The notes under the pieces: generated by a model
Told to the model about the DNA's origin: nothing
The model's database searches: none
Seen by the model: only the letters and a program-made list of their open reading frames with translations
Part shown: in pieces, positions 9,128 to 56,822 of the stretch
Position numbering within the stretch: the first letter of the stretch is position 1
How the letters are laid out: every line of letters begins with the position of its first letter
Position numbers and translations under genes: made by a program
Source of the DNA: Octopus vulgaris
Taxonomy: Eukaryota
DNA: 64,000 nt
Direction: 5' to 3'
NCBI GenBank assembly: GCA_951406725.2
Contig: OX597838.1
Location: forward strand, 26,474,001-26,538,000

Positions 9128-9313
9128 ATGACGAGTAGAGAAACAATTTTGTCATCGGGGGACGCGGAAGATGAGGACAAGGACAAGGTAGATGGTCTGC
9201 GTAAAAACTTACTCGATGAATTTTACAGCGAAACTAATGACAACTTTGAAAAGCTAAAGGTCTATTTGAGAGTTCGACCATTCACACCTGAGGAACAGCA
9301 GAACAAATATCGG
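9128..9313 (+). CDS. KIF20A/B: Coding exon 1, N-terminus and start of motor domain
   Basis: Poly-T tract and acceptor at 9117; MTSRE...LRKNLLDEF...[12 protein letters not shown] resembles human KIF20A RKNLL...[11 protein letters not shown]; donor CGG|GTGAGA, phase 0. Confidence 0.92.
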
Positions 9314-12300: not shown

Positions 12301-15300
12301 GTCTCTTGTGCTGATAATTGTTATTTCTTTACTGCCCACAAGGGGCTACATGCAGAGGGGACAAACAATGACCCCCAGTACTCAACTGGTACTTATTTCA
12401 TCGACTCCGAAAGGATGAAAGGCAAAGTCGACCTCTGTGGAATTTGAACTCCGAACATAACTGCAGATGAAATACTGTTAAGCATTTTGCCTGGCGTGCT
12501 AATGGTTCTGCCAGCTCGCCACTTTATGTGTGCTGAGGATTCTGCCAGCTTCTTGCTCTTAACTGAATATTAAATGGTTTAATATTTTGGAAGTGTTTGA
12601 AAATAATCGTTTTCTTATTTTTTTGTACTAATTTATTATCATTTCATTCGGTCCACTCAGCTGGCAAAAATGAGTAGTACCAGTAATTCAAAGGGCCAGC
12701 CTTGTGTCACACTGAATCTCCCTGAGAACTACATTAAGGATTATTTATATAGGACAGATAAGTATTGTCACCTTATTGTTACTACAACATTTCAGCTGGT
12801 GTACTCTACAGCCTTCATCAGGTGTCTTGGTGGAATTTTGAATCCAACCCTTTATTTGACTAATGGGGTACTCTGTAGAGCAGTATTACATTAAGGATAA
12901 ACGTACATGTCTGTGGAGTACTCAACCACTTGCACGTTAATTTCACAAGCAGGCGGTTCCGTTGATCGGATCAACTGAAGCCCTTGTCAGCATAACCAGC
13001 AGAGTGCCGGCTGTTGTTATACCATTTTGTCATTTATTCTCTCAGCGAAAAAATCATATTCTTTGTTTGCTGTTTCAGGTACACCGAAAGAACCAGGTAT
13101 ATTACCTCGTACGCTTGAGACAATATTCAGCCACATCTCCGGTAAACTGTGGCACGGTCTCGACCTAAAACCAAAAATGTATTTAGACGTCATAAAACTA
13201 TCGCCCACCTTTGAAGCTGACGAAAAACAAAGGAAAGAAGAGCTTTTGCGGTTAGCTTCTTTTGATGTGAGTTGTTTACTGTATTACTTTCTGAATTTTC
13301 CATCTTTCATCGTTTAACCCTTTTGTTACTAACCCGGCCGAAACCGGCTCTGGCTCTGTGGTAAAATGTTTTGTTCTCAAAAGTTTTGAATTAAAATATT
13401 CCACCAAACCTTAGTCACAATTTATGTTCCTAACACTAGCCTAATGATAACTAAGTTATTTTACTAAATTCTTTGTTACATGTAAAATAATTGAAAGAAA
13501 CACAGAGCATCTCAAAATACAGTAACGAAAGGGTTAATTTAAAATATCTTGGTGTGGTCAGTAAGTGAAATATGTATTTTATCCCGTTTTCATCTAACTG
13601 CAGTTCTTTTGTACCATGCTGGGATATAAAGGCACTTGAAATGAGAGGTGTCAAATATCTTGACTTTGTAGTAATATTACTACTAATGCAGTAATATTTA
13701 ATCCATTTGTTCACATGAATCTTACATATACAGTAAGGTCTCGAAATATGAGTTAATTTGTTCCCGAGACTGCTCATAACGCAAAAACTTGTCAAGCAGA
13801 GCAATAATTTCCCATAATAGCAATGTTATAAATTGCATCTTGTTCTCAGAAAAATATTTTACCTATAAAATTTACAATACTCGTAAATAAATGGCAATAA
13901 AACAACAGTGGAATGTAAAGAATATTCTATGTAAAGTAAAAATGTGAAGATCATATATAATAAAAATCACTTTCACTCACACTAGACATGCACTCATCAC
14001 TTGTAGACGCGAATGCCAATTCACAAGCACTTGTAGACACACCTGTAGATTCCTTTTTAAAAAACAAGTTTAGAGTTTGCTTTTTTATTTTTTTCCCCCC
14101 TACTCTCAGAACCTGTATTGTTACATGTTGCAACGTTGCCACATGCACAAAATTTCGTTTTGGGATTTGGTTTGCAAGATTCTTTATGTCAGTTCGTGTG
14201 TTGAAGCATATTCTGTTGTGTCTGGGGAGAGTCATTTTCTTTTTGTGCCTTATAATATAACTCACTCACCGGTAAAATTTCCACTTTTTTTCTTATTTTT
14301 ATTTCCATTGCGTCTTGCAGCCTTTTCAATAGTCTTGACTCTCTAAAAATAAAATTTGTAAAGCCAGTACTTGAAAAGTGAGGTATTACTGTATTTTACA
14401 ACCTGTATTCATCTCCATTTGGTCCGTTGCCAGCCACGCCTGGCCCCCGTGCCGGTGACACGTAAAAGCACCATCCGTTCGTAGCCGTTTGCCAGCCTTG
14501 CCTGGCCCCCGTGCCGGTGACACGTAAAAGCACCATCCGTTCGTGTCCGTTGCCAGCATCGCCTGGCCCCGTGCCAGTGACACGTAAAAGCACCATCTGT
14601 TCGTGGCCGTTTGCCAGCTCTGTCTGGCACCTGTGCAGGTGGCACGTAAAAAGCACCCACTACACTCACGGAGTGGTTGGCGTTAGGAAGGGCATCCAGC
14701 CGTAGAAACATTGCCAGATCTGACTGGGCCTGGTGAAGCCTTCCAGCTTCACAGACCCCCAGTTGAACCGTCCAACCCATGCTAGCATGGAAAGCGGACG
14801 CTAAATGATGATGATGATGATTTCTTTTGTACCTTGCCAGGATATAAAGACACTTTCAAGTGAAAAGTGTCAAATACCTTGACAAAACCATATGTTAATG
14901 CAGTGGTATGCTTAAATCATTTATATGAGTATAACATATATTTCTATTTGTACATTACATATATTTATACATACATTTTTTTATATTACAGGAATCTGAT
15001 AACCAGAGCACTTTTGCAGACAGTGGTCGTGAGTCATGTACCTTAGATGCCCAAGAGACCACCCACGGTGAGGATGTGGCAACAGCCAAAGAGAGGGTGG
15101 TGGTGGTGGGGGGCATGCATTCTCATTATGAAAAGTAAATGGAGGGGTGTCTGTTGTTGTAGAACTATCGGGCGGATTACTAAGCCAGGGAGCTAAAACC
15201 TCTTCACATCTTCGACTGAGGACATGGCCTCTCATTACTCATTTACTTGTTTCAGTCATTTGACTGTGGCCATGCTGGGGCACCGCCTTTAGTCGAGGAA

Positions 15301-18300
15301 ATCGACCCCAGGACTTATTCTTTGTAAGCCTAGTACTTATTCTATCGGTCTCTTTTGCCGAACCGCTAAGTAACGGTGACGTAAACACACTAGCATCGGT
15401 TGTCAAGCGATGTTGGGGGGATAAACACAACACACAAACATACACACATATACATATATGCGACAAGCTTCTTTCAGTTTCCATCTACCAAATCCACTCA
15501 CAAGGCCTTGGTCGGCCCGAGGCTATAGTAGAAGACACTTGCCCAAGGTGCCACGCAGTGGGACTGAACCCGGAATCATGTGGTTTGTAAGCAGTCTACT
15601 TACCACACAGCCACTCCTACGCCTTCACTATTTAATGTTTTTGCCTTTTAATTGATGACTGATTAATTACCATATATGTTTGTAATTAACCCTTTAGCAT
15701 TCAGATTACTCTGTCAAATATAATGCTTATTTAAAAACTTTTTTTTTTTTTATTTATCTAGTTTCAGCTCACGAGCTGTGGCCATGCTGGGGCACCGCCA
15801 TTTGTTCACGTTGTTTTGAAATAACCATGCATTCTTTCATGGTTTTGAGATTTCAGTTTTGCAATTGTTTATTTTTGGAATGACAGTGTAGAATAGGTGA
15901 GATAGGCCAGATCCAGTCAAGACAAAATTTTAGCCTGATATGGCCTGGTTAAATTGCAGGACTTTATCAAAGAACTGCATGTGACTTATTGCTGTGCATT
16001 AGAAATTTGCAGCTTGCACTAATGCACAATCATGTGCACATCAGTGCCGCCTTAGCTGGCTTCCGTGCCGGTGGCACGTTAAAAGCTCCAACTGATCGTG
16101 GCCGATGCTGGACCCCCTGGCACCTGTGCAGGTGGCACGTAAAAAGCACCCACTACACTCGCGGAGTGGTTGGCGTTAGGAAGGGCATCCAGCTGTAGAA
16201 ACTCTGCCAGGTCAGACTGGAGCCTGGTGCAGCCCCTGGCTTCCCAGACCCCGGTCAAACCGTCCAACCCGTGCTAGCGCAGAAAATGGACGTTAAACGA
16301 TGATGATGATGATGATATGGTTATTTCAGTGAAGCGATTGAAACAAGTAACAGAATAACCCTTCCAAATGCTGACCACTTTACAGTGTGAACTGGATGCT
16401 TTTTGCTTGGCACCAGCACTGGTAGGGTCACCAAGTAACTTGCAAGACAAGGAATTTTGAGTGGGGCAGGGGAATTTGTGTCAGAGGATGAGAAGTTAGA
16501 ATATGACAGAGAGGCAGAAACAGGGGTCTTGACATAGAGGAGGTGCATGGTACTGAGTAAGATAGGCACAAGAAGTTTCTATGTCCTGAATTCACTTTCA
16601 CAGCTTTTGAGAACCTAGAAGTATAGCAGACAGTATTTGCTCGAGGTGCCATGCAGGAGGAAAGAACCTGTGAATCGTGTAGTTGTGAAATGAACTTAAC
16701 CCTTTTGTTAGCAACGCGGCTGAAACCAGCTCTGGCTCTTTAGTACAAATGTCTGGTTTTCAAAAGTTCTGAATTAAAATCTTCCACCGAACCTGAGTCA
16801 CAATTTACGTCCCTAACTCTAGCTTAACCCTTTAGTGTTGAGATTACTCTGTTAAATGTAATACTTTTTCACTCAAATTGTTTTGAATTAAATCATGCAT
16901 TATCTTATAGCTTTGAGGTTTCAGTGATGTGATTGTTTATTTTTAGCATGACATTGTTGGTTAGGTGTGAGAGGTTAGATATCGCCAGTTGAATATAAAA
17001 CATTTAGAATATTTGGGCCTGATATGGCCAGTTTAAACACTAAAGGGTTAATGATAATGATATTATTTTACTTAATTCTTTGTTATATTTAAAATAATTG
17101 GAAGAAACGCTGAGCATCTCAAAATAAATTTAGTAAGGAATGGGTTAAAACGGTCGTGTGATCCTTAGGAGCTTCCATAGAATTTACCAACATTTTCATA
17201 ATTTACGAATTTAAAATAATGTCAATTGTTAAGACATACCTCAAACATGAATTTGTTTTTCTCCTCAGATTCTGATGTTAATGAAGAAGACTTGCTGCGT
17301 TCCACCCACCTGGATGACTCTGCGTTCTCAGGCCAAATAAAGTATTCAGTATGGATCAGTTTTGCTGAGGTATACAATGAGAATGTGTTTGATCTTCTGG
17401 TTACTCCTCTCCATAAGAAGCGGAATCCCTTGAAGTTGGGTCAGGACAAAAACAGTAACCATTACATTCGTGGTGAGTAATATTTCTTTTGACTTTTGTA
17501 TGGTAACAGTTGAGTTGGATGGATGCACCTCAATGGTTTCGTTAACATCCTCATCACCATCGTCATCTAATGTCCACTTCTTGCATAAATCGGATGGAAT
17601 TTGACAGATTTTCTTGGGCCAGATGCCTTTCCTGTCTCTGACCCACACCTATTTCTAAGTAAAGTTTAACCATGGCCAGACATGTTTTCACGGCAGATTT
17701 GTATTTAAGGGTCACTGGTAGTAATGACATGTCACTCATTTACAACTATCATGCGTTAGGAAAGGCATCCGACTGTAGAGGCCAAATAAGACTGGAACCT
17801 GGTGCAGCTCTCCAGCTTACCAGTTCCAGTGAAACCGTCCAACCCATGCCAGCATGGAAAAAGCACATTAAATGATAATGATGGTACAATATCAAGAAAA
17901 GGTCACATAAAACACACACTGCATAAAACAGGTTTCTTTGATTTTCTGTCTACCAAACCTGCTGACAAGGCTTTGGTTGGCCTAGGGCTATAATTAAAGA
18001 CCCTTGTTCAGTATGCCATACATATACGTATAATGTGTGCTTTTTTTTTTCTATATTTTCATTCACATACAGGCGTGGCTGTGTGGTAAGAAGCTTGCTT
18101 TCTACTCACATGGTTCCGGGTTCAGTTTCACTGCATGACAGGTGTCTGCTACTATAACCTCAAGCTGACCAAAGCCTTGTGAGTGGATTTGGTAGACAGA
18201 AACTGAAAGAAGCTGGTTGTATATTTGCATATATATATGTGTGTGTGTGTTAAGAGCTTAACGTCCATTCTCACTTGACATCTTTTTCTGTCTTAAAATC

Positions 18301-19055
18301 CCAATCCCTGATTGCTTTTTGATACGCTTGTTTTCATTTCTTACACATGTGACAGGTTTGACAGAAGTAAATGTTTCATCCATTGAAGAGGCCCAGAAAG
18401 TGTTGATTCTTGGCCAGAAAAATCTCCACAAGGCTGCCACAAAACTCAATCACAATTCCTCTCGAAGGTAAGGCTACATCGTTGGTTTATTCCAGTGGTT
18501 TTCAACCAGGGTTCCGCCAGTACAGTCCAGGGGTTCCGCAAGAAGTTACAAAACTGCTAAAATCGGCAGTAATTTTTAAGTCTCCTGTGCAGATATGTGT
18601 GCATAAGACTATTAAATTATTGCACAGGGGTTCCTCGAGCCAATGGAATGTTTCCTTGGGGTTCCGCTCCAGCAAAAAGTTTGAAAAGCACTGGTTTATT
18701 CTTTTGTGGGCCCATGGTTCTTGCTATCATCAAATCTCATCTGTTTCCAAGTGGAGTAATAATATTCCTCCCAGTCCCTCACACAAGCATGGACTTGTCT
18801 AGACAAGTGAAATGCAAACTGGACACTGACCCACACACACGACAGAAAAGCAAGATATGGATGCAATATTCTTTTATTCTTGTTTCAGTCATTTGATTGC
18901 GGTCATGATGGCGCACCTCCTTTAGTTGAGCAAATTGACTCCAGGACTTATTCTTTGTCAGCCTATTACTTATTCTATCAGTCTCTTTTGCTGAACTGCT
19001 AATGTTATGGGGACGTGAACACACCAACATTGGTTGTCAAGTGGTGATGGACACA

Positions 19056-19086
<31 letters not shown>

Positions 19087-22000
19087 CATCATCATCATCA
19101 TCATATATATATCTGATGGGCTTCTTTCAGTTTCCTTCTACCAAATCCACTCATGAGGTTTTGGTTGGCCTGAGGCTATAGAAGTCTCCTGTCCAAGTTG
19201 CCACACAGTGGGACTGAACCCAGAACCATGTGGTTGGGGAGGAAGCTTCTTACCACATAGTTGCACTTGAGTGTGTTTGTATATATTCAAACATAGACAA
19301 CAGGCTTCTTTCAGTTTTCCATGTACCAGTTGTACTCAGGTCTTTTGCTGGCCTGAAGCTATAGTAAGAAACACTTGTCCAAGGTGCTACACACTGGGAC
19401 TGAACCCAAAACCATGTGGTTGGGAAGCAAACTGCTAAACCACACAGACTTCATATGAAAAATGCATTTAGATCTACTTGGCACTTTGTGGCATTCTGCC
19501 CACACGGGAGGAACCCAAGAAGAGGTTCTGGGACCATCTTAAGCTTGCCCTCAACTCCTGCAACGTTCAACTGGCACAACATGAATACTTTGCTCAGAAC
19601 TGGTAAACCTGGCGCTCCTTCTGCGACGAAAGAGCTGCACGCTTTGAACTAATCCGACATGAGAAATTTCAGGAAAAGAGACATGAACATCATCTCAGAC
19701 ACACCATCAGCATAATGGGCAACTTCTCTTGTCGTCTGTGTTCAGGGACATGCCATTCCAGGATCGGACTGTTTTCACATCTATCAACTCCCAAAATGTT
19801 GGGTGAGACTCCTAGAGTACAACATTGACAGACAGCTATAAGCAGTAAGGTAAAGGCTCTCAAAGAGAGGGTCAAATATGGCTCCTAGTTTGAGATTTTC
19901 TTCGTAATTATAAGGTTGTCCCAAAAGTTCGTAGAAAGTCTTGGAAAATAATGGTCTTTATTTTTAGGAATAATTTTTGTTGTTTTTGTTAGTACTTGGC
20001 GAGTAAAAATTCAATTTTCGCAAGTGTTTATGAACTTTTGGGACAACCTAATATAAGTTGTCACAATACGAGATTTTTTTTTTTGTCACATTATATGTAT
20101 GTCATGTGTCATAATATTAGGTTGTTATGATATTAAACTTGCTTCTTCTCATTCTTGTTGCAGCCATTGTATATTTAATATCAAACTTGTACAAGTTGTT
20201 AACAGAAAGAACCCAAGTGTGGCTAAAGTGAGCATGTAAGTACTCCTCGACGTTTGTTACAAATATTCCCCTCTCTTTGTGTCTGTATGTGTTGTTATTT
20301 GTTCCTTCTCGAGTGATGCCTAGCTCATAAGGGCTGGTTTCCTGGTTTCATTGGCCTATAGGTTCCTCAGCTGGTGGGCTGCTAGATGCAGGAGGAAAGA
20401 GTGAGAGAAAGTTGTAGCGAAAGAGTCAGTAGAAATTTGCCATTACCTTCTGCCGGAGCCACATGGATCTTCTGTATTTTGATCATAAACACACACATTG
20501 CCCAGTCTGAGATTTGAACCTGCGATCCTGCACCGCAAGTCTGTTGCTCTAACCACTAGGCCATGTCCCTCCACTGTGTCTCTATGTACATTATTATTAT
20601 TGCGTGAGCGAGTTGTTAAAGCATTAGATAAAACCTTGTGTCATTTCTAGTTACTTCCTGTTTGCATTGTACTCAAATTTCACTGAGTTTAAGTTTTGCT
20701 TTTAATTTTTTTGGGGTTGATGAAATAAAGGACCAGTTGAGCACCAGGGTTGATGAAATAAGCTAGTCCCTCTCCCCAAAAATTTCAGGTCTTCTACCAT
20801 TGAAACCATTATTATTATTAAGGCAGTGAGCTGGCAGAATTTTTGGCACGCTGGGCAAAATGCTTCACGGCATTTTGTCTGTCCTTACACCCCAAGTTCA
20901 AATTCCGCTGAGGTCGATTTAACCTTTCATCTTTTCAGGGCTGATAAATTAAGTACCATTGGAGTACTGAGGTTAATGTAATCAACTTTCCCTCTCCACT
21001 CAAATTCCAGGCCTTACTGCCCCCGAGTAAATTCTTCATTATTTTCAAAATTTAATTAAATTAAAGGCAGTGCATTTCCATTAGAAATATGGTAGCAAAA
21101 AGGTTAAAGTAGGAGTTCAAGCAGGTGCATGTATGATAGTGCTGTTAGATAGAACCCTTTACAATGATGTGATTTGTAGCTTCACTGCTGTTTCTAGCAC
21201 TTCATTTGGTTGTTAGAGGGAGGGCAGGCTTTGCTTTTTGGTTTAAGGCGTTGAACTAGCAGAATTATTGGCACATCAGACAAAAATACTTGGTGGCATT
21301 TTATCCATCTTTCAAATTCTTCCGATGTCGACTTTGCCTTTCATCCTTTCAGGGTTCATAAATTAAGTACCAGTTGTACACTTGGGTTGATGTAATCGAC
21401 TTAACCCTTTAGCATTCAGATTACTCTGTCAAATGTAAAGCCTGTTTAATTACGTTGTTTTAAATTAATTGTACAGCATATTGTAACTCTGAGATTTTGA
21501 TGATGTCCCTGTTTATTTTTAGAATGACTTTGTAGGGTAGGTGTGAGAGGTCAGAGCTGGCTGGTTTGAGCATATAACAAGACAATTTTGGCCTGATATG
21601 GCCGGTTTAAACTCTAAAGGGTTAAACTCTTTTCCTGAAATTGCTGGCCTTGCGCCAAAATTTGAATCTAATGGTTATTTGTTTTTGTATTTTTCTTTCT
21701 AGGTTGTCTCTCTGTGACTTGGCAGGTAGTGAGCGTACGTGTAAGACCAATTCCACAGGAGATCGTCTGAAAGAGGCTGGCAACATCAACACTTCACTGC
21801 TGACACTTGGCCGGTGCATTGAGACGATGAGAAGTAATCAGTTAAGAAAGTGAGTTTACTGATGTGGTTTCATTGAGGCAGGTTTTATACGGTTGGATGA
21901 TGCCTTTCCTGTCCCCAACCCTCATTTGCTGCCAAACAAGATAAAGTTTCCCCATAACTTGACATTTGAAGGAAAATAGTGTTGAAAAATATAAATCCGA

Positions 22001-22196
22001 CATACTCTGTTACTTGTTTCAGTCATTTGACTGCAGCCATGCTGGAGCACTGCCTTTAATCGAGCAACTCGACCCCGGGACTTATTCTTTTGTAAGCCCA
22101 GTACTGATTCTATTGGTCTCTTTTGCCGAACCGCTAAGTAACGGGGACATAAACACACCAGCATCGGTTGTCAAGCAATGCTAAGGGACAAACACA

Positions 22197-22252
<56 letters not shown>

Positions 22253-25200
22253 CATACATATATATACGACGGGCAGAAAACACTTGCCCAAGGTACCACG
22301 CAGTGGGACTAAACCCGGAACCATGTGGTTGGTAGACAAGCTACTTACCACACAGCCACTCCTGTGCCTACGACCTGATCGACTTAGGATCTGTCAGTCA
22401 GAACAGAACTCATAAGTGGAGGAGGTGTATTTTATGCTCTTTCAAAGGTCTGTGCAATGGCTGTTGTCAACCGACTGAACGGCTGTGTGTTATTTAATGG
22501 ATCTTTATCGGCTTCTATGATGAGTGTTTAGTCGTTTGATCAACTGAACTCCTTGCCTTGAATTAGCATGTAATTGGCTGAGTACTCTACAGTAATTTTC
22601 ATGTACAATTGCCATGATATAAAGGTTTGTGTGTGGGGGGCAGGCTTAGATGTGAACTGTATGGAAGTTTATCCATCTGACAAGCTTCCTTATAGTTTCC
22701 ATCTTAATTTCACTCACATGGCTTGAGTCAACCTGAAGCTATGATAGATCCCTTTTGACCAAAATGTGCAGTGGGATCGACCCGAGACCATGTGAATGTG
22801 AAGCACACCTTAGCCATTTGGCCATGCTTATTGTACCTTGATGGTATTTAGTTTTGGCCCCATTGCTGTCTGTGACCCTCATCATTATTTAATGTCCCAT
22901 GCTGGCATGGGTTGGTTGGATCAACAGTGAGCTCCAGTGTCTGTTTTGGCAAGGATTCTACAGTGGAGGCCCCTCCTAACACCAACCAATTTACAGAGTG
23001 GACTTGTACTGTTTCTTTGTTTTTTCATGGCATCGGAACTGTGTGACTTTGATGACCCCTATTACTGATGAAGAGTAGAAAAGAGAAGGAATGCGATAAT
23101 TCTGGCTGGAGTGATGAGGGACAGTATTTTGGATCTTTACCTTTTGACCTACAGTTTACTGATGTGGTTTCATTGAGGCAGGTTTTATACGGTTGGATGC
23201 CTTTCCTGTCCCCAACCCTCATTTGCTGCCAAACAAGATAAAGTTTCCCCATAACTTGAAGGAAAATAGTGTTGAAAAATATAAATCCGACATACTCTGT
23301 TACTTGTTTCAGTCATTTTACTGCAGCCATGCTGGAGCACCGCCTTCAATCGAGCAACTCGACCCCGGGACTTATTCTTTTGTAAGCCCAGTACTGATTC
23401 TATTGGTCTCTTTTGCCGAACCGCTTTTTTTGTAACTAAACACCAGACACTGGTAGAATGTGTCATATAAAACATCTTTTACTCTTAGCTTTGATTGGTT
23501 GAAAGTACCGAAATACGAGAACTTTAACGTGAAATAACTTCGTAAATATAAGCTTTTCTCAAAAACACTAAAAGTAAAAGATATTTTATATGACACATTC
23601 TACCAGTGTCCGAAGTTTGAAAGTGTTTCGTTACAAAAAATTATTTTTTAAATCTGTGGGTCAAAAGATAATAAAGATCCATCATTTTCTGATGTCGGTC
23701 GTGAAAATACCTTGCTTTATTTCATATCTCTTTGTTTTTTCCCCGTTTCTTATTTCTAGGGAGTTTCCAAAGTTGATTCCTTACCGAGACAGCAAGTTGA
23801 CCCGTCTTTTCCAGGGTTTCTTCAATGGTCATGGTGAGGCCATAATGATTGTCAACGTGAACAAATGCAGCACTTTGTTTGATGAAACTCTGCAGGTGTT
23901 CAAGTTTTCGGCAATTGCCAAGCAGGTAGTCATTCAAAAGGACCCACTGAAGTCACCGTCTGTCAACATCTCACCCGTGCTCCCTGTCAAGCCTCTCTCA
24001 AACCTTGAAAGGGATTCTATACCCTGGGCTACAGATGGTAAACAATTTTAATCACATTCACGTGTACACTTTTTAATTATAGCATGGAAGGCAGATGTTA
24101 AACAGTTAAATGATATATATATATATATAAATTAAGTACCAGTTACGCACTGGGGTTGATGTAATCGACTTAATCCCTTTGTCTGTCCTTGTTTAGCCTC
24201 TTGTGGGCAATAAAGAAATAAGAAATCTATGGATGATTTAGCAGGTTGCTAATGTCTATGCAAATGATTAAATTAGTCAGCTGTTGATGACTGAGGTAGT
24301 TAGAACACCTACAGTGCGAGAGATGAGAGCTAAAGCACTCTGATGCTGCACACACATGGTGGGTTTCTCTCAGTTTCCATCAACCAAATCTCCTCAGAAG
24401 GCCTTGATCAACCTGAAGCTGTTCTTTTTTTCCTTTTACTTGTTTCAGTCATTTGACTGCGGCCATGCTGGAGCACCACCTTTTAGTCCAGCAAATCGAC
24501 CCCAGGACTTATTCTTTGTAAGCCTAGTACTTATTCTATCGGTCCCTTTTGCTGAACTGCTAAGTGACGGGGTTGTAAACACACCAGCATCGGTTGTCAA
24601 GCGATGTTGGGGGGGACAAACATATACACACATACATACATATATATATATACATATATACGACGGGCTTTCAGTTTCCGTCTACCAAATCCACTCAAGG
24701 CTTTGGTTGGCCCGAGGCTATAGTAGAAGACACTTGCCCAAGGTGCCACGCAGTGGGACTGTTCTTGGAACCATGTGGTTGGTAAGCAAGCTACTTACCA
24801 CACAGCCACTCCTACGCCTATAGTAAAAATAAAAAATTAAAAAAACTGGCCCAAAGTGCTACACAGTAGGACTGAACCCGAAACCATGTGGTTGGGAGGC
24901 AAACTTTTAACCACACAACCAGCCAGCACCTTTGTCCATATTCATTCAATCTCACTGGAAAATTAGGTCCCATAACATTTCCTCTGTAGCTTGCAACAAA
25001 TTAATCTGAGTTTCACTGTTTCTTTGAAAATTCCTCAGTTAACCATTTCGCTATTAAGCTGAGAGGTTTGGCCTTAGTTGGATGCTAAATAAATGAAGGA
25101 TTTTACAGAGATAACATTTTATCCATGTAGTGGGGTTGACATGATGTTTTCTTGTTTTTTTTGTATATATATTTTCCCTCTCATCCAAACTGACTTCATT

Positions 25201-37200: not shown

Positions 37201-40059
37201 GGGACTGTTGCCATAGTAACAAAACTAAAGCACGCAGAGTAAAGTTTCTTGGCAAAGATTGACCTTGAACCTCTGCTGTGCATGGGTGGCACTAAGTTTT
37301 AACATTCTAGCTCACTTCTGTTTACAGCAGTGCTTTGAAGGAACGTGTGTAGCGTGTTATTGTCGCATTGACCATGACAGAGAAAGCTGTCATCCTGATA
37401 CCTGCTCAGAGGCCTATGCACAGTTGCAGAGAGTGTATGGGCCTCACACAAGTGTACAAGTGGTTCAGACGTTTCTTAGATGGCTGTAAAAATGTCGGTA
37501 TTGATGAACGTTCTGGAAGACTGGCAACCAGCAGAACTGAGAAAAATATCGCAGATGTGCATGCAGCTGTGAGGGGAAATCATTGATTATTACACACATG
37601 TGAGTGAGAACACTTTGAGATATTTTTGGTATCTAACATATGTCAGATACTGCGAGCGCTGCTTCTGATGACCCAAGGTCACAGTGACAGCACTGCTTCT
37701 GATTGGTCAATTCATGGTGATGACCCGAGGTCACGGTGACTTTTGTCATTCATAAGTTACAACTAAACGTGAAGAATTTAGTTATTGGGTTAATAAAATA
37801 TGGTCGTTTATTCATGTGTAATAAATAAAATACCAAACTCATTCCCTATGGATACCGTATTTATTACAACTCGTGGCTTGTAAACGTATCTAACGAGCGA
37901 AAGCGAGTTAGATACGTTTACAAGCCACGAGTTGTAATAAATACGGTATCCATAGGGAACTCGTTTGGTATTCTCTCTATCTCCGTCCATGAGTTATCAG
38001 ATGATGTGCAGATTAGTTATGGTTCAGTTCAGTCCATTATCACTGAAGATTTGAGTACGAGATGTGTGTCTGCCAAGTTTGTGCCAAAACTTCTTAGCTG
38101 AACTAAAAGACACTCGGGGTTTCAGTTGTGCAAAATCTCCTCGATTGTGTCGAGAACAACGAAAGCTTTTTGCAGACTTTGCATAGGTCTCTGATTAGGG
38201 ATTGCCAAGATTTGATGCAGATTTCCTGTTCAAATTTCTGTCATGGTCAGTGTGACGATCACATGCTACACACCTTCCTTCCAAGCAGTGCTGTAAACAG
38301 CAGAAATGAGCTAAAGTGTTAAAACTTAGTGTGCGTGCAGAACAGAGTTTGTGCCAAGCAGCTTCACTGTACGTGCTTTCGCTTTGTTACTATGGCAACA
38401 ATCCGGATACTTATTGATCAGACCCAGTATACTCAACATGCACACAACACATCCCACATGCATACATTGAGCTATTTTTCATTTGCCAACTCCACTGACA
38501 AACCTTTAGTTGTCTGGGAACTATAGCAGAAGGCATTTGACCTGGTTGCCATGCAGTGGAATTGAACCAGAAATCATGTGGTTGGGAAGCAAACTTAACC
38601 ACACAGCCATTCCTGTAATATAAATAGCATGATTAAAGTTTTTTTTTTTTTTTTTTTTTCCCCAAAAAAAATTTTCTCTTTTCAGACATCGACAGAATGC
38701 AAAGTGTGTCTGGAGCGAAGTGAAGCTGGGTCGCCAGTCGGGTCAAAAGCTAAACTGCAGAAGATGGAGTCTGTTCCGGAAAAGGCATCAGGTACAAACA
38801 CTACTCTTCCTTTTCAAGGCACAACCAATGAAAAACGAGTTACTAGGAAAATGGTTTGTAATGGTATGGCTGCAAATGGACACAGAACTAATGATCTCAT
38901 CACCACCAGTGTCCGTGGTGTCGTTGTGGAGAAGGCAGACGAGTCTCGTGTGCTACGGCTTTTGCTCAACAATACCAATAGCAGTAACTTGGTTCCAACA
39001 CCGACAAAGACCAGCTTGCTACGCATGAAGAAATTTTCTTTGAAACAGTCTGACATTGAAAATAGCCCACCTGGTTTTGTTGGTAAGCTTAATAAGGGAG
39101 GCAAGAAGAAAGAGAGCTTGCGACATCGTTTGCTGGCGCCGATCTGCTCCAATCTGATTGCTGACAAGAAAAAGAAGAAAGGCGAAATAAGGAATCGGCG
39201 CCGCTCTAGTTTAGTTTGCAATAAACGTACTTCTCTTGATATAAACAAAAAATATAATTTACGAAGCAAAAGATGATTCCATTTTAGATTAATTTAAACA
39301 GGAAGATTATACCAAAAGAATTAGGGGCTGTCTTGGGTAAATTGATACCAGAAAGGTTAATAATGTGTATACTATTTATGGTGAAATAAAACATATTTTA
39401 GAAACGTAACATTATGTAGCAGAATGAAATATTGTAATGACCGGGCAATTTGTACATTGTGAGCCTTGCAGCTACAGTGAACTAGAAAAGTTTCAATATC
39501 TGACAGCAGATGTTATTGACAAGGGTCAGATTTCATTACAATATTAAAACATTTGCAGGTCTTTCATTTTCCTTGGCTAAAACCACGTTCAACTAGTTTA
39601 AAAAGTGGCACCTTTTAGAATTATCATAAATAAGATATAGCAATTAGATTTGTCTGTGGATCCCAAATGTCTCATTTTTTTTTTTATTTGTTCATATCAA
39701 TCTCTAAACGTGATACAGACAAAACTGTTGTGGAAAACCAATATTATATACCATCTGAATCAAAGTTGCAAATTTTGTAGTTGGTAGTTTTATACAAGAC
39801 AATCTCAAATTTAGAGGAAGTGACGCAAAAACAAATGTCTTTAAAGCATCAATGGCCATGTTATTTCAGAAGCAGGGGAAGGTTCCTTTTATCATTATTA
39901 TTTAAACTTTTTAATTTTTCGAGATTTCTTTTAATTTGCTGGAGTATGTCGTGGATAATAATACTGAATTGATTGTGAATCTGTGTAATAACTACCTGAA
40001 TTATGATGAATGTCTGCAATCAGTCTGTTGTGGATGAGATGTGAGGACTTGAATTAACC

Positions 40060-40097
<38 letters not shown>

Positions 40098-43000
40098 TTT
40101 GATCAGAGATTAAATGAAAGCTGATTTATCTCTTACATATCATTGTCCATGATGTTTGGTGTTGACAGTGATGATGATTGTCGTGAATGTGACAGATTTT
40201 ATTGAAAGAATCAGAAATTATGGAATAAATTTGTAAAGGTCCCGGCAAATTTTTGTTGTCTTGTTCTTTTTTTTTTTCTTTTTTTGATTTGTTTTGTTGT
40301 ATTGATTGAAGGGAATTCATTTCCCCCCTTTGAAAACCAGAGAAATCTTCACCTGAAGTCAATACTAACCTAAACTTTTGTTTTGGTTTCAGGTGAAGAC
40401 CATTCCTGGCTGTTTGACCACACGGTCTCAATATGGTTTCAGTTTTTATTTATTTATTTTTCTCACTCCACCTCACGAGCATGTCTTGGCTTGCATCCTG
40501 GCCCAGGGTGGTGTTCGACAAAGGTGTAATCTGATGTCATGTGATACTAGACTGCACCTTGACCTTGGCTTTTCTCTCTCTCTCCTCCTCTCTCTCTCCT
40601 CCTCCTCTCTCTCTCCTCCTCTTTCTTCCTCCTTATCTCTTTTTCTCTCCATTTGCACAATACTCAGAGCCATGCTACAAACTGGAGTTTTGCCTCTTAA
40701 ATTTAATCAATACTGGAGCCAGGTATTGTTGTCATCATTGCTGTTGCTGTAATCAATACTGGAGCCAGGTATTGTTGTCATCATTGCTGTTGCTGCTTAG
40801 ACCCATAAACGTATGACCAAAGGTATTTTAACTGACCAATGTGTCATTTCCATTTTTAAGATGCTCAGGTGTGATTTGAGGGAAATGCAACTCCTAGCAG
40901 ATCAAGCTCCCTCCATTCTACAGACTCTATCTCTCGCTTGTATGGCTTAAAAGTTGTATTGAAAATGTGATGATTAATCTGTTTTGAGCAAGATCTTACT
41001 ACTATTTCTAACAAATCGAGTCCCCTCCCTACCATAGTTTCTCTCTGGTTGTCTTGAAAATATGGTGACCAAGGGGGGGTTACTTCTGTTGGGAACAAGA
41101 AAGAAGCTAGTGAGAGTAGATTATCTCCCCTTAACAGAAGCTAGTTTACATAAAACATCAGCATGAGAATAACGTATGTAGATCAGTGTTCTGCAAGCGG
41201 CATGCTGGGGTGCCACAAGGCGATGCTAGGTGTGCCACAGTGTAACCTGAATGTAATTTTTTTGTCCCCTATACTTTTACTTATATTTATTTCAAAATTC
41301 AGTGGCACACCTAAACTAAAAATATAAGTCTTGCAATTGAAAAAAAACCCAAAAGATTTGCAGAGCACTAATGCATGTGTGTTAGTTTCCCAACTGCTTG
41401 ATAACCAGTGTTGGCTTGTGACTTAGGGGTTACTGAGAAGAACGACTACTTTAAAAACTAATTATGTGTTATGGCTAGATTTTTATCTACCTGGCTGTGC
41501 GATAAGTAATTTGCTTCCCAACCACACTGTTCTGGGTTCAGTCCCACTATGTGGCACCTTGGGCAAGTGTCTTGTGAGTGGATTTGGTTGGCAGAAACTG
41601 AAAGAATCCTTTTGTGTGTGTTTGGCACCACCACAACTGCTTGACAGTTGGAGTTGGTATATTTACATCTCTGTAACTTAGTAGTTCAGCAAAAGAGACT
41701 GATAGAATAGGATCTTTCCCTTTTGACCGACAGATTTAAAAAGTAATTTTCTTTAAGTTAACACTTTCAAACTTCGGACATTGGTAGAATATGTCATAAA
41801 ATATCTTTTACTCTTAGCACTTTTGAGAAAAGTTATATTTGTCTTGCTGACAAATAACGGCAGTAATTTTATTCAGCTGAATACCCGTCATTGATTGTTT
41901 GAAATTACCAAAATATGAGAACTTTAGCGTGAAATAACTTCGTAAATATAAGTTTTTCTCAAAAGTGCTAAGAGTAAAAGATGTTTTATACGACACATTC
42001 TACCAGTGTCCGAAGTTTGAAAGTGTTTAGTTAAAGAAAGTTATTTTTTAAATCTGTAGGTCAAAAGGTAAAGATCCATAGAATAAGTACTGGAGTGGAT
42101 TGGCAGAATTGTTAGAGCATTGGGAAAATTCTTTGTGGGACTTGTTTCTGTTCTTTACATTGAGTTCAAATCCCACTGAGGTCAACTTCTCTTTTCACCT
42201 TTTCTAGGTCAAGTTGCAGCATATTTTATCTTTATGTATAAAAGTGAAGTTGTGTGAGTGTCTGTCTCCTACGATTTAGATTCCTAACTACTCCCACATT
42301 TTGCGGTGCAGTTAAACCAAAAGCGGGTATCTTATAGTCTTGGTTCATATTGAGCCCTTCTGGGTATTAGTGCGCATCTACGATTTAAAAAAAAATTTAC
42401 CACCATTTTTAATGCATTTTTTGCTATTATATAAGGGAAGTAACTCTCTAAAAATGCTTATATAGTTATTTCCCTTGCAACGCCGGGCGATACTGCTAGT
42501 AATGAATAAAAGAATTTTCAGTTTAGACTAGTATAAGGAAAGTGATGCCATCTGGTGTCTTTTTTTTTTTTTTAATTTTGGTTGTGTGGTTGCAATTGCG
42601 AACTCAATGAAAAAGGGTGCTTGTTGCTGCCAATAGCTGGACTGGAGGACAAAGGTTCGGCTCTCTAGTCCTTCTTGTCTTGCTTTACAGTTGTGAAACA
42701 AACCCTGTCTGGGGCTCTTAGGAGCCACCTGAATTCCTCTGGTACCAAGATGCTTTGCAGGATAATGGGTTACCATTGGTTGGTTTTTGTATCTGACCAA
42801 CAACTCTACTCCGAAACTGGCATGCGTCTGGTTACTTGTATGATTTGAGAGTGTCAGCTCAGACTGTTTTGTCATGCTTGGATTTTTTTCCCTTTTCCGA
42901 GCTGGATCCTGTGTACCATGCTTTCTTTGAGGATCCAGCTGGTGGGTGATGGTTTGTGTTAGTTGACAACATGCCACCGCAGAAATGGAGGACTGCCTGG

Positions 43001-46000
43001 GATGACCTGAGCAGATACTGACAAATGGTGGATGCTGCAGCGGCGCATTCCCTTACACCTGACCTGGGGGAAGGAGGAGGGCAGGATCCTCAAACCAGAG
43101 GCCTGGCTCCCAAATAGCTGTAGCAGATTGGACTTTGTTAAGGGCACTCAAAGACCAGGTAGTGATGCAAAACCAGCCTCTCCCCAGTAGGGTTTGAACT
43201 TACAAAAACAAATACTGCAAGGTATCACATCTGAATCTAACATTTCTGCCAGTCCATATAACTTAATAAAAGGTTATTTGTAAAAATTTATGATAGAATG
43301 TAACATTTTTGCCTCCCGTTGGAGACACCCCCAGGCTATATTCTTGATATTCCATGGAATTCACCACCAATTTGCGATAGTGATATTTTTTGTCTGAAGT
43401 CTCACATTACTGTAATTCAAACCACATTATCCAAATTTTAGGAATTCTACAGAACTTGGATATGAAAAGAGTATAGAATTTCTGTCGTTTCCTTCATTGG
43501 AGTGCTGTCCTCCATAAAATAATTTCTGTGAAAAAGAAGCAATTAATGCTTATACAAGGTGTTCAAAAAGTCTCTCCGCAGTGAATTTTTTCATCCTGAC
43601 TCTCCAAGATGCATTTCAAAACATGTGTAGAAGAGTCAACTTATGTATTGAAAATGAAGGACAACACCTCTTATAAAGTTTTTTAAAGTCTAATGTATTC
43701 TTTTGTAGTCTTATGCTATCTTAAAAATTATTTTGCTATAAAATACTTACTGCGGAGAGACCTATTGAACACCCTGTTTAATATAATCTGACACGTAAGT
43801 GCTGGTGTGGTAAGAAGTTTGTGTCCTAGCTGTTTGGCTCTGGGTTCTAGTCTCACTGCATGGCACCTGGGGCAAGTGTGTTTTACTATATTTTCAGGCC
43901 GACCGAAGCCTTGAGTAGATTTGGTAGACAGAAACTGAGAGGTGTGGGTATGTTTATTGTTCTGTGTCACCGCTTGAGAACCAGTGTTGGTTTGTTTCCT
44001 TCCCCATAACTTAGGTTTGGCAAACAAGACTGATAGAGTAAGTACCAGGCTTAAAGAAAAAAAAATATTGGGGTTAATTAGTTTGACTAAAAATTCAAGG
44101 TCATGTGCCATCATGGCTCCAGTCTAACCAAGGTGTCACACAGTGGGACCGAATCCAGAACCATGTGGTTGGTAAGCAAGCTACTTACCACACAGCCACT
44201 CTTAATATATATGCGTGTGTGTCTGCATCTGTGTTTGTCCCCCCATCATCACTTGACTACCTGTGTTGGTCTGTTTACATCCCCTTTAACTTAGCAGCTC
44301 AGCAAAAGAAACCACAGAATTAAGTACCAGGCTAAAAAGAAATGATAGTAAGTAATGGGGGTTGATTCATTCAACTAAGAGTTTGTCAAAGCAGTGCTCC
44401 AGCATGACCGCAATCTAGTGGCTGAAGCAAATAAAAAGATGGAGAAGATAAAAAAAATATGTATGTGGCACGTAAAAAGCACCATCTGAACATGGCCGAT
44501 GCCAGTGCCGCCTTCATTGGCTCCCATGCCAGTGGCACGTAAAAAGCACCGTCTGATTATGGTCAATGCCTGGCCCCTGTGCCGGTGGCATGTAAAAAAA
44601 AGCACCCACCAACACTCTCAGAGTGGTTGGCGTTAGGAAGGGCATCCAGCTGTAGAAACACTGCCAGATGAGACCGGAGCCTGGTGCAGTACGGAAAACG
44701 GATGTTAAACAATGATGTGCACTTGTGGTGGTTCCACATAAAATGCATTTGTGCCACTGCCATATAAAATGCCCTCTGCTGATGGCACATAAAAAGCACC
44801 CATGCTGGTGGCACATAAAATGCACCCAGCACACTCTAAAGTGATTGGCATTAGGAAGGGCATCCAGCCCTAGAAACCATGCCACAACAGACAGTTGGAG
44901 CCTGGACAGCTGTCCGGTTTACCATCTCCTGTCAAACTGTCCAACCCAAAGTTGGAGATATAATTCATAACCTCCTCTGAAATATTTAGGCAGAGGCATG
45001 ACTGTTTGGTAAGCAGTTTGCTTCCCAACCGCATGGTTCTGGGTTCAATACCACTGCATGACACCTTAGGCATGTATCTTCTACTATGGCCTCAAGCTGA
45101 CCAAAACCTTGTGAGTGGATTTGGGAATTGTTAGATGGAACTGAAAGAAGCCTATTTGTGTGTGTTTGTGATTGTCCCCCACCACTGCTTGACAACCCAT
45201 GTTGGTGTGTTTATGTCCCTATACTTTTGCAGTTTGGCAAAAAAGACCAATTGAATAAGTACCAGGCTTAAAAAAAAAGAAATAAGTATTGAAGTTGATT
45301 CCTTTGACTGTGGTAAGTAGCTTGCTTATCAACCACATGGTTCCAGGTTCAGTCCCACTGCGTGACACCTTGGGCAAGTGTCTTCTACTATAGCCTCGGG
45401 CCAACCAAAGCTTTGTGAGTGGATTTGGTAGACGGAAACTAAAAGAAGCCCATCGTATATATAAATATATATGCATGTGTGTCCCCCCCTACATCGCTTG
45501 ACAACTGATCCTGGTGTGTTTACGTCACCGTAACTTAACAGTTTGGCAAAAAAGACCGATAGAATAAGTACTAGGCTTACAAAGAATAAGTCCTGGGGTC
45601 GATTTGCTCGACTGAAGGCGGTGCTCCAGCATAGCCGCAGTCAAAATGACTGAAACAAGTAAAAGGGTAAAGGTGGTGCCCCAGCATGGCAACAGTCTAA
45701 TGACTGAACCAAGCAAAAGTAAAAGCTAATTAAAACACAGTGTGTAATTTCTTTTTAGAAATTGAGTCATATAAAAATTTTGGGTTTTATTTTATATTTA
45801 GGTGCAGGAGTGGCTGTGTGGTAAGAAACTTGCTTCCTAACCACATGGTTCTGGGTTCAGTTCCACTGCATGATACCTTAGGCAAGTGTCTTCTACTATA
45901 GCCTCAGGCCAACCAAAGTCTTACGAGTGGATTTTGTAGACAGAAACTGAAAGAAGCCCCTCCTCTGTGTTGTCCTCCTCCACCACCTCTTCACGACTGG

Positions 46001-49000
46001 TGTTGGTGCATTTACACCCCCATAACTTAGTGGTTTGGCAAAAATGAGATTGATAAAATAAGTACCAGGCTTAAAATTAAGTTGCAGGGGTCAATTTATT
46101 CAACTAAAAATTCCTCAAGGCAGTGCCCCAGCATGGCCACAGTCTATTGACTGAAACAAGTAGAAAAAAAAAGAAGGATAAAATTTATTGCCTTTCTAAT
46201 TTTCTTCATTCCTATATTAATTTTATCTCCCATTTCTTTCCAGAAGGCACCCAACCTGTGGAGAATGTTGCAGAATTTGAGCTGCGAGAACGTGCTTTAA
46301 TTCATGGTTACAATGCCGAGATAGCAAAGTACAAGCTATTGGTTCGGAAACTTCGTCAAGAACTTGGCTTTCGCAACACCAGTCACCTCTCGCCAAATAA
46401 AAGCTTACGTCCCGAACTCAGCAGTTGTCTAGAACATAATGAACTGAAGCAGTATTTACTGCGTCAGGTAAAGAAACTTCAAGACGAACTGGACAAAAAC
46501 TCTCAGTGTGTGTCTGAGTTGCTTCATGAACTCGAAGTTAAGAAGGCTGCAGAGACGGATTTAGAAGAGAGGTTAGAGAAGGAAGCGAAGGGACACCAGC
46601 AGGCCAAAGCTGCTGTGTCTGAGATGAGAGAGAAGCTGAAGAAAGTGAATGAAAGATGTCGTTCGTCGTCCTTCGAGGCAGAAAAAACTTATTTAACAAT
46701 CAACAGTGAGATGTTTGACAGTGGAGATTGTGTTCTGTCTTGCAAAGAGAACAAAGATGAGGAATTTGCTTTGGGTGTTAAGAAATCTGATGAAAACCAG
46801 TCTGAGCATAGTGATGGGAACAAGGAGGCAAGGGATAAAATTGTCAAGACGAAGAAAGAGGGTCCTCTTTTGAGTATCGAGAATCAAAATGACACGAAAC
46901 TGTCTGTGTTTGATAATCACAACTTGAAGGATAAAATAATTAATAAGAATAAGGAAATCTTGAAATTACAAGAGACACTGCTTTCATATTCAGAACTGGA
47001 CTCCAAATATCAAAAGAAAATTAAAGAAAATGAGGAACTTTTATGCGAAGTTCAAAAGCATGGAACTCTTGAACGTGATCTTAAAAAGAAAGTGAAAAAT
47101 TTAGAAGCAAAAGTAGAAAAGATTGTGGTGTTTGAAGTTGAAATAGAGAGCCAAGTTGCCATCATTAAACACCTTCAATCAGCGGTGGATGAGAAATCTA
47201 AATTATTGTCTGATCTTCAGAGTCAGAATGGTGGAGAAAGTCCCATGTTGAAACGGAAGATGGAAGAGATGCAAACTGTGATGGAAGGTTTGCGTGAAAT
47301 GGTCGACGACAGCACAAAAGAACTGGCCAAAAATAATGAGAAAATCGGTGATTTAGAAAACAAAGAAAAGATGGTGTCTTCTCTTCAGACAGAATTGGAA
47401 ACCTTGAAATCTTGTCAGAGTAGTTTGAAGTCTGAGGCTAAGATTAAGTCTGATTCTCTTCAGAGTAAACTTGATGAGTTGCAATCTGAGAAAGACAAGG
47501 TCTGCAAAGAAAAAAATTGTTTAGAGAATGAAGTGATTCAGCTGAAAGAGCTTGTTGAGAAGAAAACAGAAGAAATGTCTAGTTTGAGAACAGAGCTGAA
47601 AGCCAAAGACATTGAGAGTGAGAAAGAAAATGTATTGGTTATCAATAACTTGAAGAATACATTACACAATGCAGTAAGTGAACGGGAAGGTGTGGTGCAG
47701 GAATTGGCAGAAGCTAAAGAGAAACTGTTGGGAAAAGATGAAGAAATCTGCCAAATGTCCAAAAAGATTGAGGAATATGAGAAAAAATTAGAAGACTCAA
47801 AGACTGAATTGGAAGCTGTTCAGGAAAAGAAAAGTATTGAAAGTGATGCTCTGAATGATATAATTAACGAGATGAACAACAAAATAGCTAGCATGAACCT
47901 ACTGAAGGAAAAACTTCAGAAAGAAATAGTGAATGTTGCGGAACATTTGAAATCTTTGAAAACGGAACTGGCTACAGTTCGTCAACTGAAATTAGACATG
48001 GATGACAATGTGAAGAGCTATATGGCAGATCTGAAGTCTAACCTGAGTGAAATTACTGGTCTTACTGCAGCTGCCGCTCACTGTGATAAGTCGATGTTGA
48101 CCGATTTGGAGATGCTGCCTGAAAAGAAGGAAATTGAATCTCTGAATTTGAAGATAGTTGACTTGGAGAAAGATCTGGAAGACAATGTTCATGTGAGAGA
48201 AAATTTTATGATTGAAATTTCCTGTCTTGTGGCATCATTGAAAAATAAAGACCAACAAATAGAAAATTTAACCAAAGACAAAATCCAGGCATCTGAGGAA
48301 GAATCTTCAGAGAATAAAGTAAATCTTCTTGAAAGTGACGTTGGATCTGAACACACGAGGAATCGATTGTCCAGTGAGAAATCCGATGATCTGAGTTCAT
48401 CATCATCATCATCATCATCAGGTGAGAAACAGCACCATCAGGTGTCACCACCAAAGCAGGACAACCAGTCACCGCCACCAAAGAAACCAGCCCGTCAGTC
48501 GGCACCAACGAAGCCAAGAAGACAGTCATTATGTAAGAAACAAGATGGAGACACACAGACTTCTCCTGAGAAGCAGGACAGGGTTAAACAGACAACTCCT
48601 GAGATGCAAGTCGGATCCACGCAGACGTCTCCTGAGAAGCAGGAGAGACTTTCAAATGTGGTATGTAGAAAAATTTGCTGAGTTAGTAGTCTTAACCCTT
48701 TAGCGTTCAAATTAATATGTCATAAATGTGGAGGCGCAATGGCCCAGTGGTTAGGGCAGCGGACTCGCGGTTTCGATTCCCAGACTGGGCGTTGTGAGTG
48801 TTTATTGAGCGGAAACACCTAAAAGCTCCACGAGGCTCCGGCAGTGGATGGTGGTAATCCCTGCTGTACTCTTTCACCACAACTTTCTCTCACTCTTACT
48901 TCCTGTTTCTGTTGTACCTGTATTTCAAGGGGCCGGCCTTGTCACTCTCTGTGTCACGCTGAATATCCCTGAGAACTACGTTAAGGGTGCACGTGTCTGT

Positions 49001-56100: not shown

Positions 56101-56822
56101 AAAATGTCCAACTTACACAGAGTACAAATGATATAGGAAATTAAAGGGGTGGAAGAAAGGTATTACAAATCCAACAGCTTCTTTCTCAGGGCTCGGCAAT
56201 CCATTATAATGGTTTGTAATCTTATATAGTTACTTTTCTCTGTATTTTCATCTGCTTTGGTCTCTTCTCTCCTCTGTAGATCTTCAGCAGAAGTCCTCTA
56301 TTATTGAAACCCTGAAAATGTCCCTAAAAGACCAAGATGACACCATTGTAGAGTTGGAAGATATCATGAAGAGGAAGGAATCCAAGATCAATGCTCTTGA
56401 AGAAGGTATGTAGTTCAACGTATAGCAGACTTTCCAGATAATCCTTGCTGATCCAAGAAAACAATTCTCTACTCAGCTCTACATCCACTCCCAGATTAAG
56501 ATTTAGTTTTCCAAGGTCTATTCTCAAAATCTTTGTTATTAAGTGTCACTAAATGGCAGATTCAGTAGAGCTTCACAAATGAGTTCAATGTTCTATTATA
56601 TATACACGCACATATATAATACTCTGCGGAGTGGGTGGTGTAAGGAAGGGCATCCAGCCATAAAAACCCTGCCAAAACAGACACAGTATCCTGGGATAGA
56701 CTTCTACATGGCCAGCTCCTGTCAATCCATCCAGCCCATGTCTGCATGGAAGGTGGGTGGTAAACGATGATATATATACACACACATACATGCATACATA
56801 CATACATACATATGTATGTATG

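Follow-up and report, generated by a model that had tools for sequence, protein, structure and literature searches.

A composite exon in an octopus KIF20 gene and the probable production of a short and a long kinesin-6 motor

Results

Architecture of the KIF20 locus

The stretch analysed here, called the window, comprises 64,000 nucleotides of Octopus vulgaris DNA (assembly GCA_951406725.2, contig OX597838.1, positions 26,474,001 to 26,538,000 of the forward strand), and positions below are counted from its first letter. The window, taken from a 2.8-Gb genome, holds most of one plus-strand KIF20 kinesin gene. When record P0004 is mapped on the window plus 30 kb downstream, the coding sequence of the long form (2,727 amino acids, aa) is spread over 30 exons, all in frame, between 9128 and window-relative 92256, the gene ending 28 kb beyond the window. 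The short form, of 964 aa, maps onto the O. sinensis record P0008 (named KIF20A) with two differences. A preliminary description of this DNA had given the products as 951 aa and more than 2,320 aa; the maps of P0008 and P0004 correct these to 964 aa and 2,727 aa.

The motor and the proximal coiled coil are common to both forms. Coding exons 1–5 (9128–9313, 10806–11061, 13079–13266, 14992–15067 and 17269–17472) and 6–9 (18356–18467, 20164–20235, 21703–21849 and 23760–24037), all placed by exact maps of P0004 and P0008, together encode the kinesin-6 motor domain (9128..24037; aa 48–470). This region matches Pfam PF00225 (E 7e-96), and its closest solved motor in the PDB is KIF20A (E 3e-106; next-best other chain, 5e-58). 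Exons 10–15 (25322–25419, 27766–27926, 29219–29384, 30934–31083, 33662–33760 and 36277–36387) encode the proximal coiled coil, which aligns with the proximal stalks of both KIF20A (HHalign 97.8%) and KIF20B (98.9%). No second close copy of two of the motor exons was found in the genome searched (G000), the next matches having E-values of 2e-5 or weaker.

Exon 15 (36277–36387) ends in phase 0, and exon 16, entered in phase 0 through an acceptor at 38686, can be read in two ways. It stays open for 196 codons (38686–39273) up to a TGA at 39274–39276, giving the short form a tail of 161 aa (38792..39276) followed by a 3′ untranslated region (UTR) that contigs follow as far as 40249 (39277..40249, with AATAAA at 39385 and 40224). 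It also contains a weak internal 5′ splice site, CAG|GTACAA (38789..38797; 3.3 bits), the predicted donor of the long form. Cutting after 38791 would leave a shared 5′ part of 106 nt (38686..38791; phase 0 in, phase 1 out) that fits the phase-1 exon at 46244, G+AA making a Glu codon, and would remove a predicted intron of 7,452 nt (38792–46243). Exon 17 (46244..48660; 2,417 nt, phase 1 in, 0 out) begins the long acidic coiled-coil stalk, and the exon at 46246–48660 is 100% identical to P0004, an O. vulgaris record named KIF20B. An exact map of P0004 places exons 18–24 at 50405–50840, 54331–55184, 55479–55617, 56280–56405, 58469–58741, 60769–61022 and 63370–63459; six further long-form exons, also on the plus strand, lie at window-relative 66421–92256 (loci L001–L003), the last two encoding a KIF20B-type C-terminal motif. 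On re-checking the sequence, the exon 16 coordinates and phases in the preliminary description were all right, as was its statement that exon 15 ends in phase 0 and the exon at 46244 is entered in phase 1.

Transcription of the short form and conservation of its tail

Contigs of 4 of the 24 listed runs, all of transcriptome size and from four studies, were placed on 37300–50900. These runs were taken as RNA from the tool's guess and from the contig join at the exon-16 acceptor, none being recorded as RNA; 20 of the 24 contain at least half of the sampled words of 38686–40400. Each of the four has a contig that runs without a break from the exon-16 acceptor across 38791, reaching 40020, 39685, 40054 and 39200. 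Two of these read-through contigs carry 2,290 and 2,373 nt of upstream sequence off the stretch; the upstream coding sequence is 2,304 nt, so these lengths are close to those expected of spliced mRNA. Further pieces at 40105–40249 in three runs end at 40247–40249, 20 nt past the AATAAA at 40224, and we infer that the short form is cleaved near 40250. Among the 40 scored of 913 candidates, dispersed-repeat matches begin at about 41170; upstream of that point there are only simple repeats, a TG run and a single match of 65 bp. The preliminary description had likened about 2 kb of transposon-free sequence to a 3′ UTR, but transcribed UTR is seen only to about 40249. One 65-bp piece of the UTR (39831–39895) is 98% identical to a site at G000:C8 (L005:2357–2421) with dissimilar flanks.

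The short tail is strongly basic (isoelectric point, pI, 11.1) and has no heptad signal. It carries one consensus site of the cyclin-dependent kinase type and four for basophilic kinases. It has no match in Pfam, nor did two short tails yield a usable hit in Atlas. Exon 16 is nonetheless 39–41% identical over 97–98% of its length in cuttlefish, argonaut and one Logan protein, and three collinear motifs (SRVL-type, TK[TS]S[LM]LR-type and a terminal YNLR) recur in cephalopods and bivalves. Profiles of the cephalopod and bivalve tails match each other (HHalign 66%, E 6e-5), and a hidden Markov model (HMM) of the tail links the two groups in one direction at E 2e-5. An alignment search with the tail found 20 proteins at E ≤10 among 8,000 candidates, of which 5 were seeds or near-seeds and 15 new; the four named proteins among the new ones are all from bivalves (Dreissena, two from Mytilus, and Magallana). 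No homologue of the short tail outside molluscs was named among these 20 matches or present among 223 proteins compared. Many Logan proteins of 952–1,000 aa, in an oyster and a decapodiform-like cluster, end in this tail. An origin of the short tail as a duplicate of the long C-terminus was also considered and is unsupported (HHalign ≤0.7%). These data demonstrate that the short form is transcribed and that its tail is conserved.

Long and short forms in bivalves

The preliminary description had proposed looking for the same two-tail layout in other molluscs, and long and short pairs in oyster and clam, together with Mytilus models, agree with it at the protein level. One 90% cluster, of which 15 of 40 members were listed, contains four oyster long records (2,302–2,309 aa) and at least several Logan short-tail proteins (952–956 aa). 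The oyster forms are identical up to one point, after which the short form reads G-T and the long form D-E. In Ruditapes, two records share 98.9% identity across 880 aa before continuing as G-T or G-D, and the short one is without the terminal motifs. In octopus, the short form continues as G-T and the long form as E-G. The divergence in octopus, oyster and clam is consistent with a phase-1 donor within a Gly codon. All 19 short forms examined (related sequences, with cephalopod anchors set by eye) have, after the branch Gly, a residue that an A-initial codon can encode (T in 16, and R, M and I), as a G|GTA donor needs. Mytilus models P0200 and P0218 and the old Octopus model P0006 pass from the tail into long-exon sequence, implying the same chromosomal order, tail and then long exon. 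The same switch between long and short forms is thus likely to be shared with bivalves, from which cephalopods separated in the Cambrian.

Bivalve short forms showed two further features. Two short-form models of 1,133 aa from Sinanodonta (P0026 and P0175) are almost identical, have locus numbers close to each other and lie on contigs of equal length, reflecting either a recent duplication or a duplication in the assembly. In many of the bivalve tails P0189–P0203 the last basic cluster is preceded by a KEN tripeptide, a possible degron of the anaphase-promoting complex, which the octopus tail lacks.

The long form

Splicing from 38791 to 46244 is likely, on the basis of annotations and homology. 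Donor 38791 is used in records P0004 and P0007, and the equivalent site in the O. bimaculoides RefSeq record P0005. Over its first 157 aa, exon 17 matches stalks from abalone (E 6e-24), scallop (1e-9) and clam (1e-5), and in abalone, scallop, oyster and clam the exon-17-like stalk is continuous with a motor. Because the exon at 46244 matches the stalk of KIF20B-type proteins of abalone, scallop and clam, it is unlikely to belong to a separate gene. In two long-form stalk segments, 49% and 22% of windows exceeded the 95th percentile of shuffled sequence for heptad signal (5% expected), the higher value being that of the exon 17 segment. The long C-terminus matches KIF20B C-termini (HHalign 70–81%, E about 1e-5 to 4e-5) and an HMM comparison likewise supports the shared C-terminal motif (E 7e-4 among 188 proteins), bearing out the earlier suggestion that the long tail is related to KIF20B. 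Eight low-depth contig pieces lie inside exons 17 and 18, in two of the four runs. Exon 16 has the greater contig depth compared with exon 17, but contig depth is no measure for comparing stretches of one gene and so gives no isoform ratio; the hole in contig depth at 40478–40931 in three of the four runs likewise proves nothing.

Orthology and history

A first tree was built from 132 motor regions, 25 partial ones being dropped and near-duplicates skipped. The final tree has 18 rows under the LG+G4 model, and an earlier quick tree agrees with it; the trees are unrooted and contain no named KIF23. KIF20A and KIF20B form one group with a third vertebrate clade (support 100/99), and the approximately unbiased (AU) test rejects both molluscs with KIF20A (p 3e-116) and molluscs with KIF20B (p 1.6e-32). 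With no second close copy of two motor exons found in the genome, these results uphold the suggestion that the octopus gene is the single pro-orthologue of KIF20A and KIF20B. The third vertebrate KIF20 clade (P0057, P0059 and P0068, with one sawshark record) is well supported and mostly short (819–1,223 aa).

Long forms are recorded in two nemerteans, horseshoe crab and shrimp, and also in amphioxus, starfish and lamprey, where the protein records are exclusively long. Every cluster record is long in amphioxus (7 of 7), starfish (1 of 1) and horseshoe crab (4 of 4). The C-termini of arthropod-type, mollusc and deuterostome sets match that of vertebrate KIF20B (HHalign 82–99%); an insect-like set gave no direct HHalign match to KIF20B C-termini. 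These comparisons suggest that the long form, with its KIF20B-matching C-terminus, is widespread in invertebrates and likely to be ancestral. The long architecture and the C-terminal motif extend across invertebrates, and the short KIF20A form is therefore more likely to be derived. The mollusc short tail showed no similarity to KIF20A tails (HHalign 0.08–0.12%, E 0.5–0.7), in a comparison of low power with three fish sequences from two species. The alignment of KIF20A to the mollusc short form stops at the branch residue, aa 802, in low-confidence columns. We infer that the short size class was reached twice, through RNA processing in molluscs and following duplication in vertebrates; the composite-exon switch itself probably arose in molluscs. 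Derivation of the KIF20A tail from distal KIF20B was another candidate and is unsupported (HHalign 1.6% and 3.8%).

Other features of the window and genome

Intronic tandem arrays with periods of 41, 80 and 184 bp lie at 36430–36553, 36831–37232 and 50946–52000. Open frames at 116–1628 and 58764–59312, the latter within a long-form intron, resemble C-terminal remnants of LINE reverse transcriptase. Elsewhere in the genome are two intronless full kinesin motor domains (G000:C9:36833870-36834850 and G000:C2:123673495-123674475; open frames of 709 and 766 aa) which, unlike other, multi-exon kinesins, are possibly retrocopies.

Discussion

Our data make it probable that a single octopus KIF20 gene produces a 964-aa form by read-through of exon 16 and, likely, a 2,727-aa form through the weak donor within that exon, in a switch belonging to molluscs. 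Cleavage and polyadenylation some 1.4 kb past the donor would compete with splicing, a competition that may be enabled by the weak donor, the 7.4-kb intron and the 2.4-kb next exon, as at composite intronic poly(A) sites. Human composite intronic poly(A) sites that are used have, as described in PMC10651852, weaker donors and larger neighbouring exons and lie near the donor, a pattern that the octopus locus would appear to fit. The motor and the proximal coiled coil would not differ between the two forms. MKLP2 is described as binding the chromosomal passenger complex through a coiled-coil patch at aa 636–652 (PMC7337490), and in our alignment this patch falls in the stalk common to both octopus forms. 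The short form, with its basic tail and putative kinase sites directly after the proximal coiled coil, could act as a compact MKLP2-like midzone motor; according to PMC5940148, Aurora B targets the tail of MKLP2, which also associates with lipid and regulates binding to microtubules. The long form, retaining the ancestral long stalk and the KIF20B-type end, might be a long-reach midbody bundler. PMC9603694 and PMC5374676 describe KIF20B as a bundler of midbody microtubules and state that what its long stalk is for is not known. We therefore propose that both roles, the one at the midzone and the one at the midbody, may be filled from one gene.

Several observations weigh against the reading of one gene with two forms. 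The donor at 38791 scores below 27 of the 28 other donors of the gene (leave-one-out 2.5–10.6 bits), and 4 of the 34 GT sites in 38686–39276 outscore it, three of them also in phase 1; the donor motif alone is weak evidence, and the choice of 38791 is backed by annotation records and homology. P0004 probably annotates the same assembly and hence is not independent evidence. The junction 38791–46244 is absent among the 15 of 451 contig joints listed, all 15 of which lie in repeats; among 8,000 candidates a long form was not found for squid, cuttlefish or argonaut, the three matches listed all being Octopus; and the O. sinensis RefSeq annotation splits the locus into two genes, the downstream one of 1,925 aa (P0009). 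For the short form, the tail HMM is weak in the other direction (E 0.008 to 2.3, several unreported), and a T-rich repeat that was skipped starts at 40250, next to the end of the 3′ UTR pieces. For bivalves, the evidence is at the protein level, the two Ruditapes records lie on different scaffolds and could represent two loci, and the gastropod and scallop clusters contained long forms only, with no short form seen.

The weak donor, the junction missing from the listed joints, the lack of other cephalopod long forms and the two-gene annotation could all be explained if the exons from 46244 onwards were a separate, motor-less coiled-coil gene produced by fission, or were rarely joined, leaving the short form as the sole real motor. 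We consider this unlikely. The acceptor of exon 17 is in phase 1, and the exon matches the motor-continuous stalks of clam, oyster, scallop and abalone. In addition, O. bimaculoides RefSeq uses this donor for the join, and all 30 exons form one in-frame chain. The first 7 residues of P0009 come from a dispersed-repeat end at 45700..45718, a motif that occurs 12 times in the window, and because its first residues derive from this recurring repeat end, the split model is likely to be an annotation artefact. P0009 had no match in Pfam, and the repeat end (45700–45718) gives it a false-looking start and donor. At the other extreme, the short tail might be unselected intronic read-through or a retained intron, as could be argued from its low structure and its failure to match Pfam or Atlas. 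This is very improbable and largely refuted: the open frame and the three collinear motifs are kept across cephalopods and bivalves, contigs cross the donor in all four runs, and many Logan proteins of 952–1,000 aa end in this tail.

The preliminary description favoured a pre-duplication state later divided between KIF20A and KIF20B. On this account the two-isoform gene is the ancestral bilaterian condition and each vertebrate paralogue fixed one isoform after duplication. The pro-orthologous position of the gene and its KIF20B-related long tail agree with it, as do the end of the KIF20A alignment at aa 802, albeit in low-confidence columns, and the basic nature of both short tails (pI 10–11.9). 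Separation of isoforms after duplication is documented (PMC4494069), and fast-evolving tails may lose similarity. However, the mollusc short tail has no similarity to KIF20A tails (three fish sequences), while cephalopod and bivalve tails still match each other, and its 20 matches and the 223 proteins compared include no named non-mollusc homologue. Moreover, all cluster records of amphioxus, horseshoe crab and starfish are long, and the RRSQR-type motif of KIF20A, described in PMC7337490, is present in both fish KIF20A but not in the aligned octopus stalk. We therefore regard an ancestral two-isoform gene as unlikely, and it is equally doubtful that the switch predates the protostome–deuterostome split, with vertebrate KIF20A and KIF20B as its isoforms frozen as genes. 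Were that history true, the KIF20B architecture would be ancient and KIF20A a fixed read-through product. The best reading of our data is instead that a KIF20A-sized motor was reached independently in molluscs, by a conserved composite-exon, intronic-polyadenylation switch.

Molluscs thus appear to obtain both motor sizes from one gene through a conserved RNA-processing choice. If so, the gene is a natural experiment on the role of the long stalk, with the same promoter and the same motor but two tails. A two-tail gene also explains why its database label varies between KIF20A and KIF20B from mollusc to mollusc, and why it is at times split. In mainly open-access literature, in main texts without supplements, we found no account of mollusc KIF20 isoforms; the kinesin family and the mechanism are known, and many invertebrate long proteins already bear the name KIF20B in databases. 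KIF20B is presented as a microcephaly-linked abscission motor, possibly tied to large nervous systems, in PMC5374676, PMC9603694 and bioRxiv 2022.07.13.499883.

Among known systems, vertebrate KIF20B (MPP1/MPHOSPH1) shares with the octopus long form the kinesin-6 motor, a long coiled-coil stalk and a related C-terminal motif. However, the octopus gene is not its exclusive orthologue (AU p 1.6e-32), and vertebrate KIF20B has about 1,800–1,900 aa, whereas the octopus long form has 2,727 aa and comes from the same gene as the short form. KIF20B has been called vertebrate-specific (PMC9603694 and bioRxiv 2022.07.13.499883), a description that, judging from our comparisons, would fit the paralogue though not the architecture. 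Vertebrate KIF20A (MKLP2) and Drosophila Subito are in the size class of the octopus short form, with a short basic tail, and KIF20A is also the closest solved motor and has the proximal coiled coil in common with it; the octopus short form, however, has no tail homology to the three fish KIF20A sequences compared, is not an exclusive KIF20A orthologue and is an isoform rather than a gene. Separation of splice isoforms after duplication (PMC4494069), the model invoked in the preliminary description, needs homologous alternative exons in the paralogues, and no counterpart of the octopus short tail was found in the fish KIF20A tails compared. The closest mechanistic parallels are composite terminal exons with intronic polyadenylation, examples being the secreted/membrane switch of IgM, CSTF3 and sFLT1. 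For such exons PMC10651852 describes, as at the octopus locus, a weak internal donor, a large next exon and an alternative C-terminus produced by read-through. The octopus switch differs from these composite-exon systems in removing about 1,900 aa of stalk and swapping one basic tail for another, and in appearing to be conserved between cephalopods and bivalves.

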